A stretch of DNA of 17,975 nucleotides from Nitrospirota bacterium (GTDB taxonomy: Bacteria; Nitrospirota; UBA9217). How positions within the stretch are numbered: the first letter of the stretch is position 1; each line of letters starts with the position of its first letter. The notes beneath the pieces are model-generated. The model saw only the letters and a list, made by a program, of their open reading frames with translations. It searched no databases and had not been told where the DNA came from. The position numbers and the translations under genes were made by a program. The stretch is taken from assembly GCA_963741205.1 (NCBI GenBank), contig CAVUHW010000007.1, positions 1 through 17,975 on the forward strand, given 5' to 3'. This document shows, in pieces, positions 1-17,975 of this stretch.

Positions 1-64
1 GTGAAACAAATGCGGCCGTACACGCAAGCAATGCGGCACACACAATACGAAACGTCTTTTTCAT
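1..64 (-). CDS. 5' end of a secreted/periplasmic protein gene, runs off the window (MKKTFRIVCAALLACTAAFVS...)
   Basis: ATG at 64 (minus) preceded by AAAAAGGGGG RBS; basic N-terminus plus hydrophobic stretch resembles a Sec signal peptide; sigma54 promoter at 185-200 points at it. Not in the ORF track. Confidence 0.7.
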   Translation of the reverse strand, partial: MKKTFRIVCAALLACTAAFVS

Positions 65-184
65 GATTTCCCCCTTTTTAATCTTTATAATTTATGACCG
101 CGACCTTGCGCGGGGCACAGCGTCTGGGAAAGCCTCCGGAGCTTTCATAAGAAGGTACCGTATCAACTTACTTATCTGTTTAAT

Positions 185-200
185 TGCAAGGCATATGCCA
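185..200 (-). promoter_or_regulatory. sigma54 (RpoN) -24/-12 promoter for the gene starting at 64
   Basis: Minus strand TGGCATATGCCTTGCA: GG-N10-GC, close to consensus TGGCAC-N5-TTGCA. Confidence 0.8.
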
Positions 201-363
201 AGTCATTCTGACGCCCATATTATGCCGATCAGGTTGATTTTATTGCCACTCATCGACAGACCAGGATACCGTTGCCCTTGCATTAGGCGGCTCAATGAGA
301 TTACATTCTACGCAAATGCTTAATAGATGATCAGGCGCGACTTCCTGTTCAATGGCCGTCACC

Positions 364-537
364 TTACAGGACCAACTTCCCGATATACAGCCCGCAAAAA
401 AGCGAGCCCCAGGCAATGACCGTCACATAAGCAGCCAGTTTACCTTTGTCCGGTTCATTCGTTCTTCCGATCAGAAACGATACGAAGAATGTGACTACGG
501 CAAAAGCCAGCACAGCGAATACCAGCATGGGAATCAT
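364..537 (-). CDS. small membrane protein, 57 aa, two predicted TM helices
   Basis: ATG at 537 after GGGAGAGGAG RBS, 11 nt downstream of the hesA stop; two hydrophobic segments separated by GRTNEPDKGK. Confidence 0.65.
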   Translation of the reverse strand: MIPMLVFAVLAFAVVTFFVSFLIGRTNEPDKGKLAAYVTVIAWGSLFCGLYIGKLVL

Positions 538-548
538 CTCCTCTCCCG

Positions 549-1301
549 TCAACTACTGCAAACCCCGCACTGCTCGTTCCGGGGTATCTTCACCTTCCTG
601 AAGTCCATGTCAAACGTATTGAATACCAGCATCTCCGAAAAAAGCGGCTTGCCGTAACCGGTCAAGAGCTTGATCGTCTCCAGCGCCATCAGGCACCCCA
701 GCATTCCCGAGACCGCTCCGAGCACCGGGAACCCAAGCTCCTCCCAGGACGGATCGTCCTCGGGATACACGCAGTGGACGCACGAGGCGGCCATCGGGAT
801 GACGTTGAAAAGATACCCCTCCATTCCGTTCATGGCAGCCTCGACCATCGGGACGCCCTTCCCGATGCAGGCCTTGTTCAAAACCCTTCGTTCTTCAAAG
901 TTCGGCCTCGCGGACAATGCGATCTGCGCCCGCTGCAGCAAAGCCGCCGCATTTTTATCCGTTATGCGCTCATCATAGATCTCGACATCGACCCCCGGGT
1001 TCAGCTCCTGGATCGTCTTCTTCGCCTGCTCCACCCTGCTCTTGCCGATCCCGCCGTTCTTCATCAGGATCTGCCGGTTCATGTTCGAAAGCGTCAGGTT
1101 GCCCGCATGCGCAAGGACCAGCCGCCCTATTCCCGCTGCCGCGAGATAGAGCGCCGCCGTACCGCCCAGGCCGCCCACGCCGGCGACCAGGGCCGTGGAA
1201 TCCCCGAGACGCCTCTGGTGGTCCGGCGTGAAGCCGCGGAGCATCAATTGGCGGCGATACCGTTCCAAGTCGGCATGCGTGAGCTGTTCTTTCATGATCA
1301 T
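549..1301 (-). CDS. hesA: HesA/MoeB/ThiF-family E1-like adenylyltransferase (nif-associated HesA type), ~250 aa
   Basis: ERYRRQ, GVGGLG nucleotide-binding loop, SNMNRQ, CVHC and CGVC Zn pairs; WEELGFPVLGAV lacks the MoeB loop Cys, as in HesA. Start at 1301 overlaps the nifB stop (TAATG); 1295 is an alternative start. Confidence 0.8.
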   Translation of the reverse strand: MIMKEQLTHADLERYRRQLMLRGFTPDHQRRLGDSTALVAGVGGLGGTAALYLAAAGIGRLVLAHAGNLTLSNMNRQILMKNGGIGKSRVEQAKKTIQELNPGVDVEIYDERITDKNAAALLQRAQIALSARPNFEERRVLNKACIGKGVPMVEAAMNGMEGYLFNVIPMAASCVHCVYPEDDPSWEELGFPVLGAVSGMLGCLMALETIKLLTGYGKPLFSEMLVFNTFDMDFRKVKIPRNEQCGVCSS

Positions 1302-2188
1302 TACACCGCCTCGTTGTATTCCTCGCCGATCCGAGACATCAGCACTTCGAGTTCCATGTCCTTGTCCTCGCCCAGGATTCCGCAGGCATCGGCCCGGCAC
1401 TGTTTGCAGTGAGTCATCTGTGGAATGAAAGGGCGGCACTCCTCGCGCAATTTACTGATTTCGGAATGGGAAGGCCGCGTCAGATGCTCGAACTCCGCCT
1501 GGGGGATGAGCGGTAGGATATTCATGATGTCGGCGCCGAGCTTGCCGGCGCGTTCGGCGATCTGCCGGATTTCATCATCGTTCACCCAGGGAATGAAAAC
1601 GGTATTGACCTTCACGATAAGCCCTGCTTCGATAGCGCTCTCCAGACCGCGCCACTGGTTCTTCAGGAGAAGTTCCGCCGCCTCTCTTCCTTCGTAACGC
1701 CGTCCCTTATAGATAATCCAGGCATAGATCTTTTCCGCTGTCTCCGGGGTCACCGCATTGATCGTAACCGTCAGGCTCCGTACCCCCGTTGCGATAAGCT
1801 GTGCCAATCGGTCCGGCAGGAGAAGGCCGTTCGTCGAAAGGCACAGGGTCAGGTCGGGATATTCCCAGTGGATCTTTCTCAGAGTGACATACGTCGGCGC
1901 ATTCACGAGCGGGTCTCCCGGACCAGCAATCCCCACGACGCTAAGGCGGTCGCTCCGCTCGATGAGCACCCTGGCCCTGTCGACAGCCTCATCCGGAGAC
2001 AGGACCCTGCTCGTGATCCCTGGCCGCGACTCGTTCGCGCAATCGAATTTTCTCACACAGTACCGGCATTGGATGTTGCACGCCGGGGCGACGGGCAAAT
2101 GCGCCCTCCCGAAGCGCTCGTGGGCCTCCTCGGAAAAACAGGGATGCACCTTGATAAAATCTTTGTTGCTGCGTCCTGGATTGCTCAT
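1301..2188 (-). CDS. nifB: NifB radical-SAM FeMo-cofactor biosynthesis protein, single-domain form (no NifX-like tail), 295 aa
   Basis: HPC, CNIQCRYC (CxxxCxxC), ESRPG, AGPGDPL, TVTIN and CKQCRADA NifB motifs; AAGGAGG RBS; intact frame. Confidence 0.95.
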   Translation of the reverse strand: MSNPGRSNKDFIKVHPCFSEEAHERFGRAHLPVAPACNIQCRYCVRKFDCANESRPGITSRVLSPDEAVDRARVLIERSDRLSVVGIAGPGDPLVNAPTYVTLRKIHWEYPDLTLCLSTNGLLLPDRLAQLIATGVRSLTVTINAVTPETAEKIYAWIIYKGRRYEGREAAELLLKNQWRGLESAIEAGLIVKVNTVFIPWVNDDEIRQIAERAGKLGADIMNILPLIPQAEFEHLTRPSHSEISKLREECRPFIPQMTHCKQCRADACGILGEDKDMELEVLMSRIGEEYNEAV

Positions 2189-2219
2189 ACTGTCCTCCTT
2201 AGTCCATGCTCATGATAAT

Positions 2220-2235
2220 AGCAATATCATTGCCA
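2220..2235 (-). promoter_or_regulatory. sigma54 -24/-12 promoter of nifB-hesA
   Basis: Minus strand TGGCAATGATATTGCT (GG-N10-GC) just upstream of nifB; weak IHF-like TTTCAAGGAGTTC at 2254-2266. Confidence 0.75.
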
Positions 2236-2322
2236 GGGACACGGCATCATGATTTTCAAGGAGTTCATGCGCTGAATTCCGTCGCAGAGGGAAAAGAGGC
2301 TGCGGGGTTTTTAGGCTATTGA

Positions 2323-2811
2323 CTATTTTCGGATCAATTCGGGGTCTAAAGGCCGTAACCGTGAAGGACCTCTGAGGCAGGAAAGATTGGTGGTTTTCCA
2401 GCAGCGGTTTACATAGAACTTCAGGGCATCCCCGTTATCCTGATCAGCGAGGAGCTGGACCCGGCTCAGGCCCTTTTTTTCGCACCACGTTAAGGCCTCA
2501 GAAAGGAGTCTAGTCCCGATACCTTTCTTGCGGCTATCCTTTCGCACGATGACATCTTCGATAAGACCCACCGGGCCGCCCTCGGCAGTGGAGATCAGTG
2601 TCTGCACGGAGCACATGCCGAGGACCTCTCCGCCAGATTCAGCGACAAGAACGAGTGAGTTGCCTGGAGAATCGTTGATCAGAAGTTCCAGTCCGCGGGC
2701 TTGTTTTCGCGGGTCCGGTTCAAAATCGGACTCCAGGCAAAAGAGGTCGCCGAGGAGCCCGCAGAGCTGGCCGATATCCTCGCTTCTGGCCGGACGGAGG
2801 GTGATATCCAC
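2323..2811 (-). CDS. GNAT-family N-acetyltransferase
   Basis: GTG start at 2811 just after the fdxB stop; LRPA, GLIEDVIV, RKKGIGTRLL (acetyl-CoA motif A), N..ALKFY. Exact C-terminus uncertain. Confidence 0.85.
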   Translation of the reverse strand: MDITLRPARSEDIGQLCGLLGDLFCLESDFEPDPRKQARGLELLINDSPGNSLVLVAESGGEVLGMCSVQTLISTAEGGPVGLIEDVIVRKDSRKKGIGTRLLSEALTWCEKKGLSRVQLLADQDNGDALKFYVNRCWKTTNLSCLRGPSRLRPLDPELIRK

Positions 2812-2822
2812 AGACCGGCCTC

Positions 2823-3101
2823 TCAAACCGCCACGTGCACGTGGCATTTCTTCGTGCACGTGCGCGCGCAGGCTTCGCACCCGATGCAGTTCTCCGGCCG
2901 TGCGACGGACATGACCTTGTTTCCCATGTCGTCGCCGTACTCGTCCTCGCCTTCAAACGGCTTTTCGATCAGCTCCAGCACGTCGAAGCCGCAGACCTTG
3001 TAGCAGCGTCCGCAGCCGATGCACTTGTCGATCTCGATAGCGTCGATGAATTTCGGGGTCCAGGGCTTGCCGCCCCGGGTTGTTCCGGTAATGGGGGACA
3101 T
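2823..3101 (-). CDS. fdxB: nif-specific 2[4Fe-4S] ferredoxin (ferredoxin III / FdxB type), 92 aa
   Basis: ATG at 3101 after AAGGAGG; TRGGKPWTPKF N-terminus, CIGCGRCYKVC and CIGCEACARTC motifs with an acidic spacer. Confidence 0.88.
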   Translation of the reverse strand: MSPITGTTRGGKPWTPKFIDAIEIDKCIGCGRCYKVCGFDVLELIEKPFEGEDEYGDDMGNKVMSVARPENCIGCEACARTCTKKCHVHVAV

Positions 3102-3120
3102 GGTGACCTCCTTATGAATC

Positions 3121-3203
3121 AGAGCGCAAGGGTCAGTAGCGCATGGGCGCAAGCGTTTAGGCCATTTACCTTGCTGCTATGACTCTGCGCTATCCACTAT
3201 GCC
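3121..3203. repeat. degenerate ~7-nt-period repeat element with inverted arms (nifI2-fdxB junction)
   Basis: Left arm AGAGCGCAAG..TAGCGCATGGGCGCAAGCG; right arm GCTATGACTCTGCGCTATCCACTATGCC, roughly complementary. Confidence 0.55.
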
Positions 3204-3206
3204 GTT

Positions 3207-3625
3207 TTACGCTATCGCCTCGCCGTTCTTCTCGCCGGTCCTGACCCGGAGCGCTCCATCGACGGCCGACACGAAGATCTTTCCGTCGCCTGCCTTGCCG
3301 GTCTGGTTCACTTTGATGATGGCTTTGACCACGGTAGTCACCACGTCGTCGGGGACCACGATCGTGAGCAAGCCGCTTCGGCACGAAGAGCGCGATCTTC
3401 GGCAGCGTATGGTCGAGCGCATAGGTCGAAGGCGTGGACTTGAGCTTCACCGCAGTGCAATAACTGTCCGGCATTTCCGAGTCCATCTCCGCGCACATGG
3501 CGCCCCGCTGCCTGCCCCGGCCGTCCGACGCTCTGGATCGTGAGCGAGGGATAGCCGAGGTCATCGAGTATTTTTTTCGTTTCCGGGAGCTTGTCCCGGC
3601 GTATGATTGCCGTAATTTCTTTCAT
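3207..3625 (-). CDS. nifI2: PII-family nitrogenase regulator NifI2 (~138 aa after fixing two +1 indels near 3525 and 3370)
   Basis: [45 protein letters not shown] reconstructed across three frames; long T-loop; directly follows nifI1. Confidence 0.85.
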
Positions 3626-3668
3626 GATGAGACCTCCTGTCCGGACAAGCCGGAAGCAAAACCTTGGA

Positions 3669-3766
3669 ACCGCGAAGGCGCAAAGGTCGCGAAGGACGGC
3701 TAAAAATGTTTCGGGTTTAAAACCGAGAATTAAAGATTTCCTTAGCGCCCCTTGCGCCTTCGCGGT
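3669..3766. repeat. 28-bp inverted repeat (25/28 match) with 9-nt periodicity, nifI1-nifI2 junction
   Basis: ACCGCGAAGGCGCAAAGGTCGCGAAGGA (3669-3696) pairs with TCCTTAGCGCCCCTTGCGCCTTCGCGGT (3739-3766); inner palindrome TCGGGTTTAAAACCGA. Confidence 0.85.
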
Positions 3767-3816
3767 AAATTTGTTTAATTCATTTTATAACGGATCGACT
3801 CCGCATTCCGCATTCG

Positions 3817-4134
3817 CTACAATCCCGCTTCTCCGGTCCTTACCGTGTACGCGCTCTCCACCGGGCTCACGAAGATCTTCCCGTCGCCGATGAAACCGGT
3901 CCGCGCCTTGTCCTGGATCACCTTCAGCACCTTGTCCAGGTCCTTGTCGTCGATGACCGTCATGATGAGCGTCTTCGGAAGTTCGTCATAATGGACCGGC
4001 CCCACGGTCAACCCCTTCTGCTTGCCCCGTCCGAATACGGGAACTTTGGTCAGCGACGGGAAGCCCGCGCCTTCGAGCGCCAGGACAACCTCCTGTTCCT
4101 TTTCCGGCCGAATGAATGCTCTGATCATCTTCAT
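3817..4134 (-). CDS. nifI1: PII-family nitrogenase regulator NifI1, 105 aa
   Basis: MKMIRAFIRPEK, VFGRGKQKG, short T-loop (HYDELPK), RTGFIGDGKIFV; intact; AGGAGG RBS. Confidence 0.9.
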   Translation of the reverse strand: MKMIRAFIRPEKEQEVVLALEGAGFPSLTKVPVFGRGKQKGLTVGPVHYDELPKTLIMTVIDDKDLDKVLKVIQDKARTGFIGDGKIFVSPVESAYTVRTGEAGL

Positions 4135-4220
4135 GGTTTGTTTCCTCCTGTTTTTTTGTCAAGTTCTTTCGCAACTACGTGCATAGCGTTTATATTTTTT
4201 ACTCTCTGCGCTTTGCGATT

Positions 4221-4611
4221 TCATCTGTTCAACGCCTTCCTGAGCCACGGCGGCGGCGATTTCTTGATCGTCTCCCAAGCTGCCCGAGGGCGCTCTCGAT
4301 AGAGACGATCTCCTTCATCTTCATCGGCATGATGCCCTTTTTCACGAGCCGCGCCGCCGACGGGCCGCCGATCTCCGTAAGATAAATGAGCTTGCAGTCA
4401 GCGAGCGGTCAACTTTGTTCTCGACCGCGCTGTCATGAAGGGGACCCATGTCCCTGGTGTCCACGACCGCTTTGTCCATGCCATCGGCGAACTTCCGCAT
4501 TCCGAGGAATTGAGAGCCGCCTCGCGTGATTTCATAAATTGCGAACATGCCCGCCCTGCCGAAATGCTCGTCCACCTGTTTCCCGTCAGTCGTTGCAAAT
4601 GCGACTTTCAT
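4221..4611 (-). CDS. nifX: NifX FeMo-co precursor carrier (~130 aa after fixing two -1 indels near 4404 and 4275)
   Basis: MKVAFATTDGKQVDEHFG..DCKLIYLTEIGGPSAARLVKKGIMP..SPPPWLRKAL; follows nifEN. Confidence 0.9.
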
Positions 4612-4630
4612 AAGAACCTCCAAGATCCTT

Positions 4631-4662
4631 CAAGCTTGCAAGCTTCAAAGCCGGCAAGCGGG
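4631..4662. repeat. 8-nt tandem repeat, four copies (nifEN-nifX junction)
   Basis: CAAGCTTG CAAGCTTC AAAGCCGG CAAGCGGG. Confidence 0.6.
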
Positions 4663-4683
4663 GTACAACATCTTCGCAGCTAC

Positions 4684-7374
4684 TTAATGCCTCTTCATCA
4701 GCAAATTCGCCATTTCATTGATCAGCGTCAGTGTCCCCCGGTAGCCGATCGTGACCTTCGAGGTGTACCCGAAGGTTTTGTACACCGGGAACCCCATTTC
4801 AAAGAGCGGGACGCCGAGACGCATCGCCGTGCTCTCCCCATGGGAGTTCGAGATAAGCGCGTCGAAACTCGCCTTGGATGGAGAAAAAGTCGCCGATCCG
4901 CACTTCCCGGGAGCAGATGCGGTCTGCGGCATCCGACAGCGTCGGGAATGACGGCCAACTCCACCGAAGCCCCCATTTCATCGAGCCACTTCGAGGTCTG
5001 GACCGCCAGATCGGGCTCAAGGGCAATACAGATCTTCTTGCCTCCGAAATAAAAGATGCGCGTCCCGCATTGCGTCCACCAGGACCTTGCGCTGCCGTTC
5101 GTACTGTGGCGGCATTGGCATCCCGCTGACTTCCGACAACGTCTGCATCAGACGATCGAGTCGTGCGAGCCCGCAGATGCTATCGAACACTCGATACTCG
5201 ATGCCGGACTTTTCTGCAGCAGCCTGGCCGCGGGCTCCATGCTCATGCCCGAGCGCGATCGTGAGATCGGAACTGCCCATGGCGTCCAGATCCTCTATGG
5301 TCGTTCCTCCCGAGGCCAAGGGGAGAAAAACCCTGCCTGCTCCCGTCGAGAGCAGACAAGTCAGGGAGGATGATCGGTTTCATCCCGAACGACTCTATGA
5401 TACTCACGAAGCTCCGTTACGTCCGCCGGAGTAAGATGCGATCCGGCGAGAACGTTGATCGTTCTGTCGGCAGTCCGGACGCGTCCGCAGTCGGCAGTCG
5501 ACTGTTGACTAGCGACTGACGACTGAAGGACTGACTTCTATCGCCTTCGCATACCCCGTTTCCAGCCCGCCCTGCATAGTCCGGCGTCGGAATATGAACG
5601 ACCCTGCATGCTGAATCCTGACCATTGAATTGCCGACACGACACGTGCGACATCATCCCCCTTCACTTCTGACAGCCCCGAGGTCAGCACGCCGATGAGC
5701 GAGGGTTTGTTCTTTTCAATGAACCCCTCTATGGTCTTGGCCAGCTTTCTTCGCTTCCCATGACCACATCCTCCACAAAAAGCTTCTCGAAACTAGCGCA
5801 ATGGGCTCGCGGAAATGCTTGGTCAGGAGCACTTTGCCGAGGAACGTGCAGCCCTGGGCGCCGTGGATAAGCGGCAGCGCGCGGTCGATGCCCTGGAGCG
5901 CCATCGCCGCGCCGATTGCCGGAGAATGCTTGAGGGGATTGATAAGAATTGCGGATTTCGGATTGGCGATTTCGGATTGACTTTTTTGATGTTTTGATTT
6001 TAATTCCGCATGGAGCCTGCCCTCGAAATCCTTTATCGGGGGCAATCCGCATTCCGCAATCTCTCCGCTTCCCTCATAGAAGCGGAGGCTGTTGCTGATT
6101 TGCTCCGCCAAGTTCACAAGCCCCAAATATCCCGCATAGGGCGTGTGCCGCTCCTGGTTCACATCCACAAAGGGATATCCTTCTTTGACGGCAAGATACT
6201 GGTTCCGTCCTCCGGCAATCAGCATGTCAGCGCTGCGATCCTTTAACAGCTTCAGCAGGTTTTTCGGCGTCACATCCTCGACCAAGGGCGCGTCAGGCCC
6301 GAGGATCGCTTTCATCTTTTCTTCGTCCTCGACCGTGCTCTTCTTCGTGCCGACGGCCACGATCTCGATGCCGAGGTCCCTGAGCGCCGAGATGAAGGAC
6401 CAGCTCTTGACTCCGCCCGTATACAGCACCGCCTTTTTGCCGTGCAGGTGCTTGTAGGGCTTGAGCTGCTGCTTCAGCCGTTTTTCCTCCGACAGGATGA
6501 GTTCCTCGACACGGGACGTGAGGCTCGGCTCGTCCTTCCCGACTTTGGCCTGCAGTCCCTCCGCGATCGCGCGCAAAGCCTTTGCGATCTCGGTGCTCCC
6601 GAAGAACGATACTTCCACGTACGGAATGCCGTATCTGCGTTCCATTTCCCGGGCGACGTTGATCAGTGCCCGGCCGCAAACGACCACGTTCAGTTTTGCC
6701 TGGTGCGCCCAGGTGATTTCCTCGAAGGTCGAGTCTCCGGTGATCCTCGAAAGGATCCGAATGCCCGCCTTGGCAAGGAGCGGCTCCACGAGCCAGAGGT
6801 CGCCGGCGATATTGTACTCGCCGATCAGGTTGATGTCGGTGTGCGTCATGACCGGCGTTTCCCCGGTCCCGATCACCTGCTCGAGCAGCACCTCGCCGGC
6901 GATGCGGTTCCCGAGGTTCTTCGGCCCCACAAACCCCGGCGCGTTCACGGGAATGACGCGTATGCCGAGTTCGTTTTCCGCGCGCTTGCAGACCGCTTCG
7001 ATGTCCTCGCCCGTGAGCCCGCTCACGCAGGTGGAGTACACGAAGATCGCCTTCGGCCTGACCGTCTCCTGCGTTCGCTTTATGGCGTTCAGCAGTTTTT
7101 CTTCCGAGCCGTAAACGATGTCGATCTCGCCCATATCGGTGGTGAAGCCCATGGCATGCAGCTCGCCCTTCGACGATCGCGTTCCCCGGCCTTCCCAGGT
7201 GTTGCCGCAGCACGCGATCGGGCCGTGCACGACGTGCGCCGTGTCCGCGATGGGCTGGAGCACGATCATGGCGCCGTCAAAGGCGCAGGACTCCCCGCCG
7301 CGGGAACGGCAGACCTTGTGCTTGTCGTCCGTGGAACAACCGTCTGTTGTCAATTTGTCGAGAGTACTGACCAT
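4684..7374 (-). CDS. nifEN: fused NifE-NifN FeMo-co assembly scaffold; NifN half broken by many single-base indels
   Basis: NifE motifs (CAFDGA, HGPIACC, STCVSGL, YTGGVKSWS, DVNQER) read without a stop into NifN motifs (NPLKHSPAIGA, HGAQGCT, HFREPI); the rest of NifN (TPDY, INVLAG, LPDLS, GFPVY, GYRGTL) is recoverable across frames to TAA at 4684. Confidence 0.9.
5465..5535. repeat. 7-nt-period repeat with inverted arms inside the NifN coding region
   Basis: AGTCGGC AGTCGAC opposed to GACTGTT GACTAGC GACTGAC GACTGAA(G) GACTGAC. Confidence 0.7.
5948..6060. repeat. 7-nt-period inverted-arm element with nested hairpin, forming the NifE-NifN linker
   Basis: ATTGCGG ATTTCGG ATTGGCG ATTTCGG ATT (5948-5978) opposed to AATCCGC ATTCCGC AAT (6044-6060); internal hairpin GCCCTCGA..TCGGGGGC (6019-6043). 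Confidence 0.8.
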
Positions 7375-7420
7375 GAGAAACTCCGCTGCACTTTTGAACT
7401 CTTTACTTCGCGCGCCGTGC

Positions 7421-8161
7421 TCAGATTACGACCAGTTTCAACCCGGCCATGACGAGCATGACGCCGAGCAATACCCGCAGGACCGGACTGTTGAACTTCG
7501 TTGCCCCCAGCGTCGAGCCGATGAATCCGCCGGAAATGACCGCAACGGACCAGAAAGCGAGGTGGTCGGGGAACGCGCCGCCTTTTTGAATATATCCCGC
7601 TAAACCGGAGATCGAGTTCAGGAGGATGAATGCCGCGGCCACTGCGGCCGTTCTCCGGAGTCCCGCCCAATGCAGAATGATCAGCACCGGGCTGAGAAAG
7701 ATTCCGCCGCCGACCCCCGTGAGGCCCGAAAGGAACCCGATGCCCCCTCCCACTGCCAGCGACGCCGCAATCGCCGGGTACGCGACCCGTCCGGAATCAT
7801 CGGAAGCAACCTTGCTCCGGAGCATGAGATGGAGAGCGGCGAATACCAACGCAATGCCCACGAGCATTTTGTATATCGTCGCGTCCACTGCCAGTCCGCC
7901 GCCAAGGTACGCCATGGGAACCGAGGCAAGAGCAAAGGGCCAGAAAAGGCGCCAGGAAAAATGTCCGGCCTGGTAAAAGCGGATGGTCGTGACCAGGGCC
8001 ACAATAATGTTAAGCGCAAGGGCCGTCGGCTTCATCACTGCCGGCGGAAACGAAAGAAGCGCCATGGTTGCCAGATACCCGGAGGCCCCCGCGTGCCCGA
8101 CCGTGGAATACAGAAGCGCGATGAAAAAGAAGTATATGCCGGTCATTGCGATGTCGTGCAT
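7421..8161 (-). CDS. TauE/SafE (DUF81/TSUP) family membrane transporter, 246 aa
   Basis: About 8 hydrophobic segments in two repeats with family motifs VGHAGASGY and GLTGVGGGIFLSP; intact, co-oriented between nifK and nifE. Confidence 0.85.
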   Translation of the reverse strand: MHDIAMTGIYFFFIALLYSTVGHAGASGYLATMALLSFPPAVMKPTALALNIIVALVTTIRFYQAGHFSWRLFWPFALASVPMAYLGGGLAVDATIYKMLVGIALVFAALHLMLRSKVASDDSGRVAYPAIAASLAVGGGIGFLSGLTGVGGGIFLSPVLIILHWAGLRRTAAVAAAFILLNSISGLAGYIQKGGAFPDHLAFWSVAVISGGFIGSTLGATKFNSPVLRVLLGVMLVMAGLKLVVI

Positions 8162-8177
8162 AGGATCACCCGAATAC

Positions 8178-8292
8178 CAAGCACTAAACTCTAATTTCTA
8201 AATTCGAATCAATAGTCAAAATTTCAATTTGAATATTGGTCCCTTCGTGCTTTGAATTTATTTCGGATTTAGGATTTCCTATTTCGTGCTTG
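8178..8292. repeat. AT-rich 7-nt-period inverted-arm element (nifK-transporter junction)
   Basis: CAAGCACTAAACTCTAATTTCTAAATTCGAA at left is complementary, with mismatches, to TTCGGATTTAGGATTTCCTATTTCGTGCTTG at right. Confidence 0.75.
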
Positions 8293-8295
8293 ATC

Positions 8296-9806
8296 CTATC
8301 TGAATCACATCAAAGCTCGCCGAACCCGTCGGTCTTCCTGTCCAGCTCGTCAAGCACGGTGTTCACCAGCATGGTCACGAGGTTCAATGCTCCCTGGTAC
8401 CCGATGATCGGCTGGCGGTGCAGATGGTGCCGGTCGAAAAGCGGGAACCCGATGCGGACCAGAGGCGTTCCCGTGTCCTGCGTCAGGAACTTTGCATACG
8501 AGTTGCCGATCAGGACGTCCACGGGATCGGTGAACAGAAGCGACCGGAGATGCCACATGTCTTTGCCGATATAGACTGTACCATGAGCGCCGAATGGGCT
8601 CGACGCGAGCAACTCGTTCGCCTCAGCCTCGAAATTCTTATCGCCGTTTGTGCATACGATATGGACCGGCTCGCCGCCCATCTCCATGATAAGGCTCATC
8701 ATCCCGAGCAGGATGTCCGGGTCGCCGACCAGGGCGAACCGCTTGCCGTGGACGTACGGATGCGAGTCCACCATGGCGTCCACAACCCTGCCGCGCTCGG
8801 CCTCGATCGCGGCCGGGATCGGCTTGCCCGTAAGCTTGCTCAGCTCTGCAAAGAACGCGTCGGTATTCTTGATGCCGATCGGAGAAAGCGTGAGCGTCTT
8901 CTGGCCCCACTCCTTCTGGATGTAATCCATGGTCTTCATGGTCGAATATTTCTGAAGCGCGACCGTTCCCGGGGCGTTCACCGCGTCCATGGCATGCAGG
9001 GAGCGGCGTGCCGCCCGGGATAGAGCTTGTACTCGCCCGTGTTCGGAGAATCGAAAGTGTCGCTCACGTCGGCAAGAAGCGTAAACTCGATGCCCATCAG
9101 CGCCATCAGCCGTCTTGATCTCGTGATAGTTTCCGGTATAGGTATCGAAGCCCGGAATGATGTTGATCTTTCCGTTCGATTCGCCCTTCTTGCCCGTAGA
9201 GAGCGTCGAGAGGATGCCCTTCATCATGTTGTCGTAGCCCACGATGTGGGAGCCCACGAAGGAGGGCGTGTGCGCAAACGGGACCGGCAGGTCCTGGGGG
9301 ATCACGCCCTTCTCGCGCGCGGTCCTGATGTAGGCGTTCAGGTCGTCGCCGATCACCTCCGCCATGCAGGTCGTCGAGACCGCGATCATCTTCGGCTTAT
9401 ACAGCGTATAGGCGTTCTCCAGGCCTTCGAGCATGTTGTTCAGTCCGCCGAACACCGCGGCGTCCTCGGTCATCGAAGTGGATATCGCGGCAAAAGGCTC
9501 CTTGAAATGCCGGGAGAGGTGGCTCCGGAAGTAGGCCACGCAGCCCTGTGCGCCCTGCACGAACGGCATGGAGCCCTCGAAACCCGAGGCGCAGAAAACA
9601 GCGCCGAGCGGCTGGCAGGCTTTCGCCGGGTTGATCTTGATGTTCTGGCGCTTGAAGTTGAGCTCCTTGTACTCCTCGGTCTTGGTCCACTCGGAGATCT
9701 CTTTCACCTTCTCCGCCGGCCAGCAGTTCTCGAACTCCTTCTTGCGCTCGAACTGGTCTTTATAATCTTGCTGTTTGAACAGCTCGCTATGGTCTCTGAC
9801 TTTCAT
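8296..9806 (-). CDS. nifK: nitrogenase MoFe protein beta chain
   Basis: ATG 9806 after GGAGG; P-cluster ligands AKACQP, QGCVAY, TTCMAE, TPSF; GFPLFDRHH. Three compensating +1 indels at ~9113-8997 scramble ~40 aa; two more near the end hide a typical ..SFDVIR* terminus (TAG at 8296; the as-sequenced stop is at 8310). Confidence 0.95.
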
Positions 9807-9821
9807 GATAATCCTCCATTG

Positions 9822-9920
9822 AACCACAGGCGACTGCATCGCGCACGGTAAGCATCGAAACTAAGACTCTGATTTTCGCACCTTGCAGTTCTCTCTGTGC
9901 GCTCTGCGACCTCCGTGGTT
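9822..9920. repeat. degenerate inverted repeat with ~9-nt periodicity (nifD-nifK junction)
   Basis: AACCACAGGCGACTGCATCGCGCACGG pairs imperfectly with CTCTGTGCGCTCTGCGACCTCCGTGGTT. Confidence 0.65.
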
Positions 9921-9931
9921 ACAATTTATTG

Positions 9932-11403
9932 TTATTTCTTTCTCCTTATCAAACTCCACGTCGGGCTGTTCACGGTCATGTCCATGTCCCGCGCGAAGAC
10001 CGGGAACCCGTCGAACCCATGGTACGGCCCCGAGTAATCCCAGGAGTGCATCTGCCGGAACGGCACGCCGAGCTTGTGGTAGGAGTACTTCTCCTTGATG
10101 CCCGAACCGACCATGTCGGGCTTCAGCCTGCGGGTGAACTCTTCGAGTTCATACAAGGTCGCATCGTCCATGATCACCGCGCCTTCCTTCATATCCGGAT
10201 AGGTGCGCTTGTAGTCGTCGCTGTGACCGAACTCGTAGCCCGAGGCCACCACCTCCATGCCGAGGTCCTCGTAGGCGCCGATGGTGTGGCGGGGGCGGAG
10301 GCCGCCGACGTAGAGCATCACCTTCTTGCCTTCGAGCTTCGGCCGGTACTGCTCCACCACCTTGTCCATGAGCGGCTTGTACTTCTCGATCACGGCCTCG
10401 GCGTTCTTCTGGATCTTCTCGTCGAACTTGGCGGCGATCTTCCTGATGCTGTCGTAGATCTTCGTAGGACCGAAGAAATTGAACTCCATCCACGGGATGC
10501 CGTAGGTCTCTTCCATGTGCCGGCAGATATAGTTCATGGACCGGTAGCAGTGGATCAGGTTCAGCTTGGCCTTGGTCGCGATGCCGATCTCGTTGATCGT
10601 CGAATCGCCGGTGTACTGGGCGATCACGCGGAGGCCCATCTCTTCCAAAATTTTCCGCGAAGCCCAGGCATCGCCGCCGATGTTGTAGTCGCCGATCAGG
10701 TTCACGTCATAGGGCGTGGACTTCTTGAGTTCGCCTTTGCCGAGCACATAATCCCTGATCGTATCGTTCGCAATATGGTGCCCGAGGGACTGGGAAACTC
10801 CGCGAAAGCCCTCGCACCGACCGGAACGATCGGGATGCCCATTCCTTCGCCACCCGCTTCGAAACCGCTTCGATGTCGTCGCCGATGAGTCCCACGGGAC
10901 ATTCAGACAGGATGCCGATGCCGCGGCCGAGGGGGAAGAGGCCTTTCAGTTCCTTGAGCGCGGCATCAAGCCCCTTGTCTCCGCCATACACGATGTTTTT
11001 TTCCTGGAAATCGGTCGTGATGTGCATAGTGCCGAAGGCGTCGATGCCGGTCTGGCCGTTATAGTAATTCCTGCGCGACCACCAGGAGTACTGGCCGCAG
11101 CCGACGGGCCCGTGGCTGACCGTGATCTGGTCCTTGACCGGTCCCCAGACCACGCCCTTCGCGCCCGCGTACGCGCAGCCGCGCACGGTCATGACGCCGG
11201 GACGGGACTTGACGTTCGACTTCACCTGGCAGGTGCTGCACTGGCCCGTGGGGTCGTTGGCCGCCAGATGTTTCGCCCGCTCCTTCTTCGACTTCTCCGG
11301 GATAGGCATCCAGCACCTCTTCGATCATTTTCTGGGTATCTTTGATCTTTCCGCTCATGGGTTTCGCATCCTTGATTTCTTTATCTTTCACTTCAGTGCT
11401 CAT
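9932..11403 (-). CDS. nifD: nitrogenase MoFe protein alpha chain (~490 aa after fixing indels at ~11300, ~10840, ~10819)
   Basis: [43 protein letters not shown] and RQMHSWDY all present; no clostridial-type ~50 aa insertion after YEFGH, so group I-like Mo enzyme. Confidence 0.95.
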
Positions 11404-11420
11404 GGGATCTCCTTCGTATG

Positions 11421-12378
<958 letters not shown>

Positions 12379-12384
12379 TTATAT

Positions 12385-12400
12385 AGCAACTGGCGTGCCA
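12385..12400 (-). promoter_or_regulatory. sigma54 -24/-12 promoter of the nifH operon
   Basis: Minus strand TGGCACGCCAGTTGCT, a near-perfect consensus, 36 nt upstream of the nifH ATG. Confidence 0.92.
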
Positions 12401-12605
12401 TTCTCAAAAATGCATTTTCTGGCCCGTTTTTTCATGTTTTGACAAAGCCGTCCGTGAACAAGATACGAACAGGTGGGGGATAAATAGGCATCATTGATAC
12501 TACAAACGAGCTACAATGAAAGAAACGGCGAGCAGATGTGCAACACAGGGCTGCGAAGCGCGCCGTAAGCATGCCCCGGGAGAAAGTTCGGCTTTGGAGG
12601 ACCGC

Positions 12606-13641
12606 ATGAAACGAAAAACTCTTGCAACACTGTTCATGATGGTTGCAATCTGTTTATCCGCCGGCACGGCCTTCGGTTTGGACGCGGACGAGACATCGAT
12701 TCATCCCGCAATCGGCATCCAGGGCTGGTTCTCATCGGCCTTTGCAAAATGGCAGATCTCATTTCCCTATGTCACCCGAGTCCGCAAATCCAGGGAATAC
12801 CCGCCGAGGCACGCGCGGCAAGATCGAATCAGAGCTCGATTTCGATAACATCGACAGCCCAATTTGGATCGTTACGGGAGGAGCGGCCATTGGGCCGAAC
12901 TTTTCTTTTGAAGTATTACTCGGCACGGGCTCGATCGGAAACGGGCACGGAACGGACACGGACAGGTTTCTGGCGGACTCGGGAGGAGGCCTGGAGTTCT
13001 CTCAATCCAAAAACGATGTCGACGGTAACGTCAAGCTGGGGGAATTAAATTTCTACTTTAATAACCATCGTTTCTCCGGGAAACATGATGGGCCCTGGGG
13101 GGCGGTGCTGGGCTACACCCATTATGAAGACCAACTGCACATGACGAACGCCGTACAAACCGTTTCCGTGACCTTCGACGGGACCGCGTTCCCGCCGGTC
13201 GGCCCTTTTCCCCCGGGCCTGGTGCTCAATTCCGATTTTGATTTTTCCTGGGATGCCTTAAAAGTGGGTGTCCTGTTTCAACCTGTCTTGACGGATCAGC
13301 TTTCTCTTACCGGAACCCTGTCCGTTTATCCGTTCGTAGAATACAAGGGCGACGGTTTTTGGAACCTGCGAGCGGGGAGCGGCAGGAACGATTTCCGCTC
13401 ACAGCCGCCTAATTTCACTCAGACCTCTTCAACCGGCTACGGCTACGACGTGTCGCTCGGGTTGGCATATGCTGTTTTGGAAAATCTGGAATTGTCCGCG
13501 GGATACCGGATTTTTTACCTTCGCGCGACGAACGGGACCGATACGACATTTTTTGCGGACGGGACCTCGGACGTTTCGAACCTGGACTGGGCCACCGTGA
13601 CGCGGCAGGGGGTCTATGCGGGTGTGCTGTACAAATTTTAA
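12606..13641 (+). CDS. outer-membrane beta-barrel protein, omptin-like; frameshift near 12775-12810
   Basis: GGAGG RBS, signal peptide MKRKTLATLFMMVAICLSAGTAFG in one frame, then amphipathic beta strands (ESELDF, GTDTD, GDGFWNLR) in the next; C-terminal YKF. The omptin label rests on resemblance only. Confidence 0.7.
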
Positions 13642-13899
13642 TGCGCGCCCCTGCGGAACCCGATAAAGAATGAACTCCGGCGGAGATCCTCGAACGAGTC
13701 ACTCATTGCCCCCCTTGCCAGCTGACCCCACTGGTCTCGAATACCTTAGCCTATCAGGCTACTGGGATCCGGGGTAATTAATAAGCATACTAAAGAAGTA
13801 GTTCAAAAAAGCCCACCTAATATGTCATTTCACCCACTTTTGGCGCAATTACCCAACCCTTAATTTTGTAATACACTGAAATTTAATAGTTTACAATTC

Positions 13900-13915
13900 T
13901 GGCATACCATATGCT
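13900..13915 (+). promoter_or_regulatory. sigma54 -24/-12 promoter upstream of a small ORF
   Basis: TGGCATACCATATGCT (GG-N10-GC) preceded by an AT-rich, IHF-like tract at 13861-13893. Confidence 0.7.
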
Positions 13916-13953
13916 TATTATTAATCAGAATTATAGATAGGGTGGGTAATAAA

Positions 13954-14112
13954 ATGAACGAGATGAGAACAACCGGTTGCATCCGGGAAAAGGAAAAAGA
14001 GATCGTTAATATTTTGATCGACAGCGACCTTTACCTGGACATGGATCTGGCAGAGAGATACAGGCTGTTACACTACATCGTAGACTCCTATTTCGACGCC
14101 GCTGTAAAGTAG
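13954..14112 (+). CDS. small hypothetical protein, 52 aa (MNEMRTTGCIREKEKEIVNILIDSDLYLDMDLAERYRLLHYIVDSYFDAAVK)
   Basis: AGGGTGG RBS-like sequence, ATG 13954, TAG 14112, amphipathic helical pattern, own sigma54 promoter; below the ORF-track cutoff. Confidence 0.65.
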   Translation: MNEMRTTGCIREKEKEIVNILIDSDLYLDMDLAERYRLLHYIVDSYFDAAVK

Positions 14113-14325
14113 GAAACAAGCGCTCTCCTCAAGCCCTTGCCCCGCATTACGTTTGTCCCGCTATGACCATCTAGAACGAGACTGCAAGCAGACACGAAAT
14201 TTCCCCTCAATCGTATTCAGTTGAAGATTGCGAATCCTTTCATAACCGCAGAATGACGGGAAATTATTTTATTTTTGTGATACAATGCGGACCCGATAAG
14301 GACATCACCATAAAGGGGGCATTTG

Positions 14326-16578
14326 ATGCCGACAAAGGACAATTCGATTTTGACCACCGCGCTGCACTCGGAGGTCGAGAGCCGGTTCCTCACGTACGCC
14401 CTTTCCACCATCGTTTCCCGCTCTCTTCCCGATGTGCGCGACGGATTGAAGCCGGTGCACCGCAGGATCCTGTTCGCGATGTGGGAAATGGGCCTCGGCC
14501 CCACGGCAAAATTCCGCAAGAGCGCGGCCGTCGTGGGCGAGGTCCTCGGAAAGTTCCACCCCCACGGCGACCAGGCTGCCTACGACGCCATGGTCAGAAT
14601 GGCGCAGCCCTTCTCGCTCCGCTATCCGCTCGTTGAGGGCTCGGGAAATTTCGGCAGCGTGGACGGCGACCCTGCGGCGGCCATGCGCTATACCGAAGCG
14701 CGGCTCTCGAGTATCGCCGAGGAGCTCCTGGCCGAGATCGACAAAGACACCGTCGGCTTCCGGCCGAACTACGACAACTCGTTGAAAGAACCGCTTGTGC
14801 TTCCCGCGCGGTTCCCCCAACTCCTGGTGAACGGCACGTCCGGAATAGCCGTGGGTATGAGCTGTTCCTTCCCGCCGCACAATATTTCCGAGGTAATCAA
14901 CGGACTGGCGGCCATGATCGATGATCCGGACATCGAGATAAAGGACCTGCTCAAACACATCAAAGGCCCGGATTTCCCGACCGGAGGCCAGATTCTGAAC
15001 TCGAAAAGGGAGCTTCGTGAGATTTACGAAACCGGTTCCGGCGGCATCAGGGTCCGCGGAGAATACGATGTCGAAGACCTTCCCCGCGGCAAGCAGGCCA
15101 TCGTGTTCACCTCCATCCCCTACCTCGTGAACAAAGCCAAGCTGCTCGAAAAGCTCATCGGCCTCATGGAGGACAAGAAGCTGCCCCAGGTGTCCGTCGT
15201 CCGCGACGAATCCACCCACGAAGTTCGCCTCGTGCTCGAGCTCAAAGCTGAAACGAACGCGGAGCTCGTTACCGCATACCTCTTCAAACACACGGACCTC
15301 GAATCCACCTTTCCGATCAACTTCACCGCCTTGAAACCGAACATGGAGCCCGACCGCCTGCCGCTCAAGGAGATGATGCGCTATTTTCTCGACTTCAGGC
15401 TCGACGTCGTCAAGAAGCGGCTGAACTTCGACCTCAGGATCCTCAAGGCCCGGCTCCACATCCTGGCCGCCTTCGAGAAACTCTATGACGACCTCGACGC
15501 GGCGATCAAGATCATCCGCAAGGCTAAATCGCGGGAGGATGCCTCCGAGAAGCTCAAGAAGCACTTCAAGCTCGACGACGAACAGGTGAAGGCTGTCCTT
15601 GATATCCAGCTTTACAAGCTCGTGGGCTTGGAAATCGAGCGGATCCTCAACGAGATAGCCGAGAAGACCCGGCAAAAGAAAGACATCGAGGTCATCCTGG
15701 CCTCACAGAAAAAGATCTGGGGCCTCATCAAGACCGAGCTTCTGGAGATCAAGGAAAAATTCGGTGACAAGCGAAAGTCAACGATGAAGGCGGCGGATGA
15801 CGTCGAATTCTCCCAGGAGGACTTCATCGTTCACGAGGATGTGACCGTGATCATGACGAAGATGGGATGGATCAGACGCGTCAAGACCGTGGGAGAGAAC
15901 CTCCGGTTCAAGGAAGGCGACGAGCTTTTGGCGCTCCTGCCGGCGAACACCAAGGACAACATCGCCGTCTTCTCGTCGGCAGGCAAGGTCTATGTCGTGA
16001 AGGCCGTCGATCTGCCGTCCGGCTCCGGCTTCGGCGAGCCGGTCCAACACCTCTTCAAGTTCGGCGACGGCGAACGTCCTATCGCGGCAATGAATTTCAC
16101 GACCGTCTTAGCGCAACCGGCACTCGCACCAGGCGAACAACCGGAGCTCGCTCTCGCCCCCCGGGAGGTGACGGCCCTGACTGTTTCCGCCCACGGTATG
16201 GGTTTTGCCTTTGACCTGGGACAATATAATTCCGTAACCACCCGAGCCGGGAAAAAATACGCCAGTGTCAAAGAAGACGACTATATCATGGGCGTGGGCA
16301 TCCTCGATCTGCCGAATGTCCTGTTTATCACCTCAGAGGGCAAGGCCGTCGTAGTCGCAGCTAAGGAAATCACCGTCCTGACCGGAGCGGGCAAGGGTGT
16401 CAAGCTCGTGAACGTGAAGAACGGCGAGGTTGCGCTCTTCCGGCCCGTCAGCAAAGGCGAGCAGGTGAAGGTCGTCGATGAGAAGGGCAATGAGAAGGTG
16501 ATCGACCTGAAAAAATACGGCGTGATGACCCGGGGGAGCGTAGGACATAAGGCCGTGAAGGCCGTGAAGTTCGCGTAG
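14326..16578 (+). CDS. parC: type IIA DNA topoisomerase subunit A, ParC-like (~750 aa)
   Basis: [25 protein letters not shown] (catalytic Tyr), [14 protein letters not shown]; shortened CTD with no QRRGGKG GyrA-box after GWIRRV. TTG 14323 is an alternative start. Confidence 0.85.
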
Positions 16579-16587
16579 AAAACCTGA

Positions 16588-16698
16588 CACATTAAAAGGG
16601 TCTTCGGGTCACATGCGCGGGGAGCAGCAGGCCCGGAGTCGGACCTCGATGTGCTCGTGGTTGTTGACCGCGCGGACCATGAACCCACGATTTTTTGA
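16588..16698 (+). pseudogene. remnant of a minimal nucleotidyltransferase (MNT, pol-beta fold) gene
   Basis: Translates HIKRVFGSHARGAAGPESDLDVLVVVDRADHEPTIF*, matching FGSxARG..SDxDhhV; no start codon or RBS, truncated at both ends. Confidence 0.7.
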
Positions 16699-16761
16699 AA
16701 GCTGTCCCAGGCAAGTAGCTCGGCCAGTAAGTTTGTAGCAAAGCAAAACCCGACGTAACGA

Positions 16762-16820
16762 TTCCAACAACGCCGTCGAGCGGATCGTTAAAACCGCGCC
16801 CCTCACGGCGGCGGTTCATT
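16762..16820 (+). other. degenerate attC-like (59-base element) hairpin
   Basis: TTCCAAC..CGCCGT(C)GAGCGG..CCCCTCACGGCG..GTT: AAC/GTT ends, inner stem with one extrahelical C, 59 nt long; the R boxes deviate from RYYYAAC/GTTRRRY. Confidence 0.4.
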
Positions 16821-16880
16821 TGCCTGATTCAACCAGTATTATGCATAGATATTTCGTCAACATGGCTGCATAATTGGTAG

Positions 16881-16957
16881 GTGTCGACGAGATGGATAAA
16901 ATTATTACGGACGTATAGAATAGTGAATGAACCATTCGGTTCAGCATCCATTTTGTA
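16881..16957 (+). repeat. copy 1 of a diverged ~77-bp direct repeat
   Basis: Begins GTGTCGACGAGATGG, identical to 17792-17806; ungapped similarity continues, about 48/77 by manual count. Confidence 0.6.
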
Positions 16958-17080
16958 GTTGTTATAGCAACCACTTATTTAAGCGTGAGAAGATTCCACC
17001 TGAGTTCCTTCCCCCACATACATAGAAGATATTAACATATTGACTTTGACTATCAAAGGCCGGCTTGTTACAATCAATAT

Positions 17081-17704: not shown

Positions 17705-17791
17705 ACCCGGGATACGATGCGTAACAGCAGCACAACATACAAGTGGTATTCTTTGTCCTTGTCACAATATTGGTCTTCCAAACTCGCAGGT

Positions 17792-17868
17792 GTGTCGACG
17801 AGATGGTCAAGAACTTAGAAGATGTGCAGAAGCCCGATTGAAGCATGCTGCGCGACCTACATCCTGTA
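17792..17868 (+). repeat. copy 2 of the diverged ~77-bp direct repeat
   Basis: Ungapped alignment to 16881-16957. Confidence 0.6.
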
Positions 17869-17975
17869 TCTTGTCTGCTTAAATGCAGAGCAGTTTGCAT
17901 ATTCTCCATGGGAGCCGCGTTCAGGAGAATACTATTAACAAAGCAATTAACAGGTTTTCAACAAACAATGTGAAC

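Follow-up and report, generated by a model that had tools for sequence, protein, structure and literature searches.

A TauE/SafE-family gene between nifK and nifEN of Nitrospirota as a candidate molybdate permease

In many soils and sediments nitrogen fixation is held back by the supply of molybdenum, and bacterial molybdenum uptake is usually ascribed to the ATP-binding cassette (ABC) transporters ModABC, WtpABC and TupABC. Here we describe a stretch of 17,975 nucleotides from a Nitrospirota bacterium (lineage UBA9217; GenBank assembly GCA_963741205.1, contig CAVUHW010000007.1, positions 1 to 17,975 of the forward strand), hereafter the window, in which a gene for a TauE/SafE (TSUP) permease of what we call the GH[AG]GASGY subfamily lies on the minus strand at 8161-7421, inside a nitrogen fixation (nif) operon and between nifK and nifEN. 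Genome comparisons lead us to favour, with moderate confidence, the reading that this gene, called TauE below, codes for a molybdate permease that is probably co-transcribed with nifHDK-EN and has displaced ModABC. Directly established are the membership of the family, a conserved association with nif genes at several places, a distribution nearly exclusive of ModA, and molybdenum-related neighbours of the subfamily in other phyla.

ModABC resembles the window permease in the job proposed for the latter and in genome place, since sister genomes have modA or modABC inside their nif clusters or next to them. The two systems share no homology, however, ModABC being a three-gene, ATP-driven transporter with a periplasmic binding protein and the window permease a putative single-gene secondary carrier, which would probably have a lower affinity since it lacks the binding protein. 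By family, the closest described proteins are the TauE/SafE exporters (DUF81, TSUP TC 2.A.102), such as TauE of Cupriavidus necator, with which the window protein shares the PF01925 domain, a length of about 250 amino acids, at least eight helices in two repeats and a glycine-rich first-helix motif in each repeat. It differs from them in its motifs, which in the subfamily are GH[AG]GASGY in the first repeat and G[VIT]GGG in the second, and in a context of nif, molybdenum cofactor (Moco) and ModE-like genes instead of sulfonate degradation; its substrate is probably different as well.

Two lines of work bear on what proteins of this family may carry. According to PMC12227400, the export of sulfite by TauE proteins of bacteria was deduced from expression and not measured; the paper also describes rice OsDISMO1, a TauE-annotated protein whose mutants show altered plant molybdenum and whose expression in yeast raises cellular molybdenum. 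OsDISMO1 is thus of the same family by annotation and linked to molybdenum, but it is eukaryotic and proposed to be localised in the endoplasmic reticulum, and its likeness to the window protein is one of annotation. For a bacterial member of the family (Pseudomonas fluorescens TK06_RS10770 / Acidovorax Ac3H11_578), uptake of a tetrahedral oxyanion was shown by complementation, the P. fluorescens homologue restoring sulfate uptake to an Escherichia coli cysA mutant (PMC11535334); this protein, comparable to ours at family level, differs in lying among sulfate-assimilation genes and in having sulfate as substrate. A TSUP protein of Corynebacterium glutamicum is likewise cited as a sulfate transporter in PMC5840216. 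In the openly accessible literature, supplementary tables aside, we found no report of a TauE-family gene in a nif cluster and no bacterial TauE-family molybdate transporter.

The permease gene and its position in the nif operon

The open reading frame (ORF) at 8161-7421 (minus strand) starts with ATG, holds no internal stop and codes for 246 amino acids, and the start codon is kept in all nine aligned relatives. Residues 11-243 match PF01925 (E 6e-33; 114.9 bits against a gathering cut-off of 32.6; profile positions 5-237 of 237), a score above the cut-off over nearly the full length that places the protein in the family. As PF01925 is its sole Pfam match at E <= 0.001, the protein carries no substrate-binding or ABC domain, and the combination of periplasmic binding protein, ABC permease and ATPase that defines ModABC, WtpABC and TupABC is absent from it; it may function like those transporters, yet it is no member of them. 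No NCBIfam model matched it at E <= 0.01, a sequence search of the PDB returned no match at E <= 10, so that by sequence no TSUP protein of solved structure could be detected, and a protein atlas search returned TauE/TSUP clusters only. The motif GHAGASGY occupies residues 22-29, and together with at least 40% identity to representatives this first-helix motif assigns the protein to the GH[AG]GASGY subfamily, a group defined in the present analysis. The genome of the window holds about ten additional TauE-family genes. A first-pass annotation of the window, made from the sequence alone, had described an intact TauE/SafE transporter gene with a GHxGASGY motif, and its coordinates, strand, family and motif were all correct.

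Our results show that the position of this gene is conserved. The order nifK-TauE-nifEN was found in 10 of 10 loci from species-representative genomes, with TauE identities of 71-89%; the records are titled as Nitrospirota or Nitrospiraceae metagenome-assembled genomes (MAGs), except that a single 5.4-kb contig bears the name Betaproteobacteria. When 401 genomes of the phylum were scanned, a set that shares some genomes with the first and is therefore not independent of it, 41 of them, counting the genome of the window, gave a TauE homologue at E <= 1e-20. All 21 matches from other genomes with at least 71% identity adjoin nifK and 20 of them are also flanked by nifEN, while in the remaining locus (L034) nifK is present and the contig ends 110 bp past TauE. 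Orthologues at this level of identity occur only in the window's family, in 22 of 64 genomes (own included) from 11 genera, and none of the 22 has a stop inside, three of them being cut short or split (G209, G227, G230). The first-pass annotation had named an insertion confined to this genome as a refutation of its reading, and that condition does not apply.

In nine nif-bearing relatives that have no TauE (L150-L158), nifK directly adjoins nifEN and the remaining cluster is collinear, so that TauE behaves as an element present or absent at exactly this spot; its presence varies even inside the window's own genus. The arrangement is far beyond chance, and by its conserved position TauE qualifies as an accessory gene of the nif cluster. 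The claim of the first-pass annotation that a transporter gene had been inserted into the core operon between nifK and nifE holds against these relatives, with the refinement that nifE is here a fused nifEN.

Homologues with 42-52% identity were found in nif clusters of five other Nitrospirota genomes, at different positions: in the order fdxN-TauE-nifB-hesA (G399), fdxN-TauE-GNAT (G190), TauE-GNAT-nifB (G176), hesA-TauE (G231) and nifV-hesA-TauE (G058). In the subfamily tree the genes in nifK-TauE-nifEN order form one clade (Shimodaira-Hasegawa-like approximate likelihood ratio test, SH-aLRT, 99), and the five other nif-linked genes scatter over the tree, with 5 changes needed. The nif linkage of the subfamily is thus not a single accident. 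In a further 14 Nitrospirota genomes the homologue lacks any nif gene in its surroundings (about 10 kb). Ten of these homologues fall into the same subfamily, three others are only distantly related (34-35% identity) and the last is fragmentary. No common theme was seen among the neighbours of these Nitrospirota homologues, which include major facilitator superfamily transporters, cation antiporters, BamA and a NifA-like activator, and molybdopterin oxidoreductases lie nearby in L055 and L065. The activator, with a GAF domain and a sigma-54-activator domain, is coded at L057:10492-12111, after a member of the subfamily.

TauE lies on the same strand as nifK and nifEN, separated from the former by an AT-rich spacer of 148 bp (8162..8309) and from the latter by one of 46 bp (7375..7420). 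In the nifK-TauE spacer we found no sigma-70-like promoter, no terminator-like site and no sigma-54 -24/-12 match at up to two mismatches, and an alignment of nine relatives showed no conserved regulatory element there, its sequence and length being variable; the TauE-nifEN spacer likewise held no promoter-like or terminator-like site. The only exact -24/-12 match of the window, TGGCACGCCAGTTGC at 12386..12400 on the minus strand, lies 38 bp upstream of nifH and is likely the promoter for nifHDK-TauE-nifEN. Contigs of about 85%-identical relatives from one RNA-library run bridge nifK and TauE (8171 to 8304, with 195 nt on the shorter side) and, in the same run, TauE and nifEN (7333 to 7417, 84 nt), although contigs from an RNA library can contain DNA and one that crosses two genes is no proof of a single transcript. 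Judging from the layout and the spacers, TauE is probably co-transcribed with nifHDK and nifEN.

ModA and nif-embedded TauE among nitrogen-fixing genomes

Should a nif-embedded TauE bring in molybdate, genomes with ModABC could be expected to manage without it, and genomes with it to manage without ModABC. ModA was scored by TIGR01256 in the window's family (63 genomes and the window's own) and in the whole phylum sample; two genomes (G211, G235) were dropped, their "NifK" match being only 35-37% identical, and one (G176) was added, its nif cluster being visible in L068. Among nif-bearing genomes of the family, ModA was present in 2 (G197, G173) and not found in 21 of the 23 with TauE in the nif cluster, against 13 present and 2 not found (G111, G123) among the 15 without it. 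In the whole phylum sample, ModA was present in 4 and not found in 23 of the 27 genomes with a nif-embedded TauE, and present in 75 and not found in 36 of the 111 without. A raw Fisher test, uncorrected for kinship, gives p = 1.7e-6 in the family and p = 7e-7 in the phylum sample. Within the nif-bearing genomes of the family, then, ModA and nif-embedded TauE are distributed in a nearly exclusive manner.

The absence of ModA does not reflect a failure of detection, since eight of the ModA-less genomes with TauE are 94-100% complete (G131, G033, G103, G115, G091, G200, G209, G099) and TupA-like genes, which served as a control, were found in 58 of the 64 family genomes regardless of TauE. WtpA did not pass its cut-off in any of the 64. 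The genome of the window itself holds three or four tandem genes for TupA-like binding proteins (G000 C8:12349-14862), which score below the NCBIfam cut-off.

The place of the mod genes follows the same pattern in several clusters. The nif cluster of G385 ends in nifB-modA-modB-modC-nifV, modA directly follows nifB or hesA in G169, G024 and G063, and modCBA lies 2.5 kb upstream of nifH in G087. In G190, which belongs to the family of G385 and G169, TauE sits between fdxN and the GNAT gene, nifB-hesA-nifV carries no mod genes and the genome has no ModA. No mod gene was seen in any TauE-bearing cluster examined, the window's included.

The physical presence of modABC within some nif clusters also favours another explanation, namely that TauE is a general anion permease with no nif-specific role which was inserted once and then inherited, the ModA pattern marking two haplotypes of the cluster and not a function; gain or loss of whole clusters would then move both traits together. 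That the genes in nifK-TauE-nifEN order form a single clade, that the family has many paralogues and that just three well-supported independent contrasts are available on the NifK tree are in line with it. We nevertheless hold this explanation to be improbable. On the NifK tree the state of TauE needs 8 changes and that of ModA 7, so the two types are interleaved; modA lies far from nif in some TauE-less genomes, on different contigs in the case of G095; and the five further nif-linked homologues stand at other positions and outside that clade. A permease with no nif-specific role also does not explain why unrelated phyla tie the subfamily to Moco and ModE-like genes, or why 11 genera have kept the protein at 71-89% identity, none of its 22 matches holding a stop.

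The wider subfamily, its neighbours and a possible mechanism

Outside of the Nitrospirota the subfamily is large. At E <= 1e-30 to the window protein there are 602 representative clusters, and of the 150 best representative homologues, whose near-full-length rows are 40-62% identical to it, 107 carry the motif GH[AG]GA[ST]GY. The cluster members that have names belong to Fluviibacter and Polynucleobacter MAGs, to Planctomycetota and to Chitinophagaceae; they are annotated solely as "sulfite exporter TauE/SafE family" or "YfcA"; together with the atlas clusters they give a range of Pseudomonadota, Planctomycetota, Bacteroidota, Chloroflexota and Nitrospirota.

A metagenome scan with the subfamily alignment yielded 80 loci (43-83% identity, median locus length 5.3 kb), 12 of which have Moco-biosynthesis genes within 4 kb of TauE. 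The typical order is moaA ... moeA-TauE-moaD-moeB(+rhodanese)-moaE, with moeA 10-65 bp upstream on the same strand. In about 7 of the 80, TauE stands directly behind TupB/TupC/TupA-like ABC genes and a gene of roughly 120 amino acids with a ModE N-terminal domain, and in this group a Mop-domain protein that passes its cut-off is coded in L095, with MoeA found downstream in L104 and MobB downstream in L086. A tree of 103 rows places the molybdenum-related contexts in several separate lineages, with about 10 changes. Both of the contexts that the first-pass annotation had proposed to compare are therefore found in the subfamily, nif in the Nitrospirota and Moco genes in the metagenome loci. No Moco riboswitch was found with Rfam in the window and 13 loci of molybdenum context. 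The only Rfam matches were a chrB-b RNA and a fluoride riboswitch (5604-5657 and 12637-12698), both near the TupA-like, ModE-like, TauE and MoeA genes of the L104 locus. Fusions to molybdenum-binding domains were also considered and rejected: ten longer proteins, which seem to be merged gene calls, hold either no further domain or unrelated ones (ABC_tran, ACR_tran and thioredoxin-like among others), and a second Pfam domain is likewise missing from the long ORFs of L113, L078 and P0148.

These neighbours bear on the family's traditional substrate. TauE could be a transporter of sulfite or another sulfur oxyanion that feeds NifB with the ninth sulfur of the cofactor, derived from sulfite, or it could be an exporter of sulfite. 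Exporters of sulfite and sulfoacetate gave the Pfam family its name, the nif cluster contains nifB and a ThiF-type sulfur-activating enzyme, a homologue adjoins fdxN, nifB or hesA in five genomes, and the L-cluster is described as receiving a "sulfite-derived ninth sulfur" in PMC10622910, a point of literature on which the first-pass annotation had relied and which holds. A role in sulfite transport, however, explains neither the near-exclusive distribution of ModA nor the ModE-like, Mop, TupA-like, MoeA and MobB neighbours. Among the TauE neighbours examined we found no recurring sulfur-assimilation, sulfite reductase, adenosine phosphosulfate or phosphoadenosine phosphosulfate (APS/PAPS) or sulfonate genes, most nif clusters of the phylum do without TauE, and the export of sulfite by bacterial TauE proteins itself goes back to expression, as cited above. 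We therefore regard a sulfite function as unlikely.

An uptake permease for sulfate, meeting the large need for sulfur that comes with building Fe-S clusters while nitrogen is fixed, would agree with the P. fluorescens and C. glutamicum proteins described above and with the similar shape of sulfate and molybdate. Still, it meets the same difficulty with the complementarity of ModA and the molybdenum-specific neighbours, no cys or sat genes are adjacent, and about ten other TauE-family genes are already at hand in the genome of the window; this possibility appears very unlikely to us. The first-pass annotation had named sulfur, its leading idea, or else molybdate as the supply that the gene might serve. 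The molybdate half of that proposal gains from the replacement of ModA by TauE and from the moeA, moaA, moaD, moaE, mobB, ModE-like, Mop and TupA-like neighbours, whereas to the sulfur half the genome comparisons add nothing.

TauE/SafE proteins are built as a repeat of 4+4 helices, and the AlphaFold2 model of the window protein (mean predicted local distance difference test, pLDDT, 89.7) is a two-repeat helical membrane protein with a glycine-rich motif per repeat, as is characteristic of the family. The model has ten helices with breaks at residues 21-25 and 149-152, and the two broken transmembrane spans that it predicts coincide with GHAGASGY (22-29) and GVGGG (149-153). Invariant or near-invariant polar residues of the subfamily are Y18, H23 (in most members), S27, Y29, N51, N182 and S183, and the subfamily alignment shows no basic residue of striking conservation. 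The broken helices and the conserved polar residues together suggest an anion site formed by helix ends and by hydroxyl and amide donors, which in this model would lie at the two glycine-rich breaks. The best match to a solved structure found by Foldseek is the BacA/UppP fold (PDB 6fmt, 5oon), a weak match (template modelling score, TM, 0.57; E 0.015) that also has broken helices, but BacA/UppP is an enzyme and shares 12-14% sequence identity with the window protein.

From these elements the following sequence of events may be proposed. TauE would share with nifHDK and nifEN a transcript that starts at the sigma-54 promoter in front of nifH, and would act as a secondary permease carrying molybdate, or molybdenum and tungsten oxyanions generally, into the cell, where the imported molybdate would serve FeMo-co (iron-molybdenum cofactor) synthesis on NifEN. 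In the genomes that carry it, TauE would fill the place held by ModABC in sister genomes; the direction of import is assumed because TauE replaces an importer.

The surrounding nif cluster and the weight of the evidence

All of the nif genes of the window are on the minus strand and, in the direction of transcription, follow the sigma-54-type promoter as nifH, nifD, nifK, TauE, nifEN, a nifX-like gene, two P-II genes, fdxN, a GNAT gene, nifB, a hesA/moeB-like gene and an ORF of 62 amino acids. The nifH gene (11470..12348) matches PF00142 (E 9e-128). It is followed by nifD (9932..11309), which is in two frames broken near 10820-10842, both ORFs matching PF00148, with two private 1-bp deletions, and by nifK (8310..9839; PF00148 E 1e-121, and DUF3364), in which the frame is kept and three private 1-bp insertions (9113, 9016, 8996) scramble about 40 codons. 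Downstream of TauE, the fused nifEN (4687..7374) is broken by many 1-bp indels and matches NifEN (NF011047, E 2e-204) over its first 552 amino acids; in the relative L010 it is a single ORF of 905 amino acids (L010:10893-13610) whose tblastn match spans 7374-4687 of the window. The nifX-like gene (4227..4623; PF02579) is in three frames and is followed by a nifI1-like P-II gene (3817..4134; PF00543, E 4e-25) and by a nifI2-like one (3213..3625), also in three frames. These two P-II genes sit after nifX and not between nifH and nifD, an order kept in all related clusters examined.

The remaining part of the cluster starts with the nif-specific ferredoxin III gene fdxN (2823..3152; TIGR02936, 107.8 bits against a cut-off of 80.55) and a GNAT acetyltransferase gene (2323..2880; PF00583), the latter lying between fdxN and nifB in most related nif clusters. 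A second sigma-54-like site, TGGCAATGATATTGC (2221..2235, minus strand, one mismatch), stands upstream of nifB (1301..2188), which codes for a radical-SAM core form of 295 amino acids (TIGR01290, 355 bits against a cut-off of 343.65). The gene for a hesA/moeB-like adenylyltransferase of the ThiF family (549..1439) matches PF00899 (E 2e-55), with MoeB models matching below their cut-offs. Its longest ORF overlaps the end of nifB by 139 nt (1301-1439), and the true start is probably a later codon, as relatives align from about residue 39-60. Directly downstream is the 62-amino-acid ORF with two hydrophobic stretches (364..552). Upstream of nifH and divergent from it, the window codes for a Pom-family (PF17251) outer-membrane protein (12643-13641), which is found at the same place in L001, L004 and L154 (58-65% identity) and could be an outer-membrane channel serving the nif cluster.

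The HesA/MoeB protein and the small two-helix membrane protein are present as the first-pass annotation had described, but the idea that they form a module with TauE finds no support, as neither gene adjoins TauE and HesA also occurs in TauE-less clusters. The 62-amino-acid protein has tblastn matches in 8 loci, six of them with no nif-embedded TauE, and it lies just upstream of modA in L154, L157 and L165, for which reason it may be linked to molybdenum supply.

Between 3370 and 11550, the window carries about 25 single-base indels that are absent from all of up to seven relatives. They break nifD, nifEN, nifX and nifI2 and scramble part of nifK and the 3' end of nifH, and relatives' contigs in four public runs also lack them; none of the sequencing runs proved to contain the window itself, the best share of words being 0.09. 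Unbroken on the same contig are TauE, nifB, hesA, fdxN, the GNAT gene and a gyrA/parC-like topoisomerase gene. The intactness of TauE alone says little, however, because the chance of no indel in 741 bp at the local rate is about 0.1. We lean towards assembly error over real decay, because all of the indels are of 1 bp and lie in genes whose proteins are 81-96% identical to those of relatives.

Several points weigh against a role of TauE as the molybdate supply of the nif cluster, in addition to the caveat given above for the RNA-library contigs. The surrounding nif genes are frame-broken in this assembly, so the cluster may be non-functional in this strain. The ModA counts come from related genomes and are not phylogenetically independent: on the NifK tree there are 3 independent contrasts on well-supported branches and 8 on all branches, and of the 3, 2.6 on average run opposite for TauE and ModA, a number with which a sign test cannot reach 0.05. 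Outside the window's family only four genomes have TauE in nif and they show no trend (2 vs 2). Four genomes with a nif-embedded TauE do have ModA (G197, G173, G231 and, weakly, G058). G197 has, in addition to ModA, two nif clusters (C51, C98; L030, L178), of which just one carries TauE between nifK and nifEN; with contamination of about 6%, two strains may be merged in it. The 36 nif-bearing genomes with neither ModA nor a nif-embedded TauE imply that other molybdenum routes exist, and the TupA-like binding proteins of nearly all family genomes could supply molybdenum.

Within the subfamily, nif linkage was seen in 1 of the 80 metagenome loci, one that belongs to the Nitrospirota clade, and three large clades have no molybdenum-related neighbours (DUF255/DUF309/CNNM, 25 rows; ArgZ-like, 9; ABC-2, 6). 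With E-values of 1e-21 to 1e-70, the matches to TupA and ModE models nevertheless stay below the curated NCBIfam cut-offs (about 231-235 bits against 400, and 75-83 against 98.5, respectively), and where a permease is the neighbour of an ABC importer of the Tup type, export is just as conceivable as import.

Extended to the whole subfamily, the reading as a molybdate permease becomes a broader proposal to which we give about an even chance: the GH[AG]GASGY branch would be an unrecognised and widespread class of prokaryotic molybdate, perhaps tungstate, permeases, repeatedly recruited into nif, Moco and ModE-like-linked operons, which in diazotrophic Nitrospirota displaced ModABC as the molybdenum supply for FeMo-co. 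If true, this would add a new transporter class to molybdenum homeostasis and would correct the annotation as "sulfite exporter" on thousands of genes. It would also offer a compact one-gene part for engineered nif clusters and explain how diazotrophs that have no ModA acquire their molybdenum.

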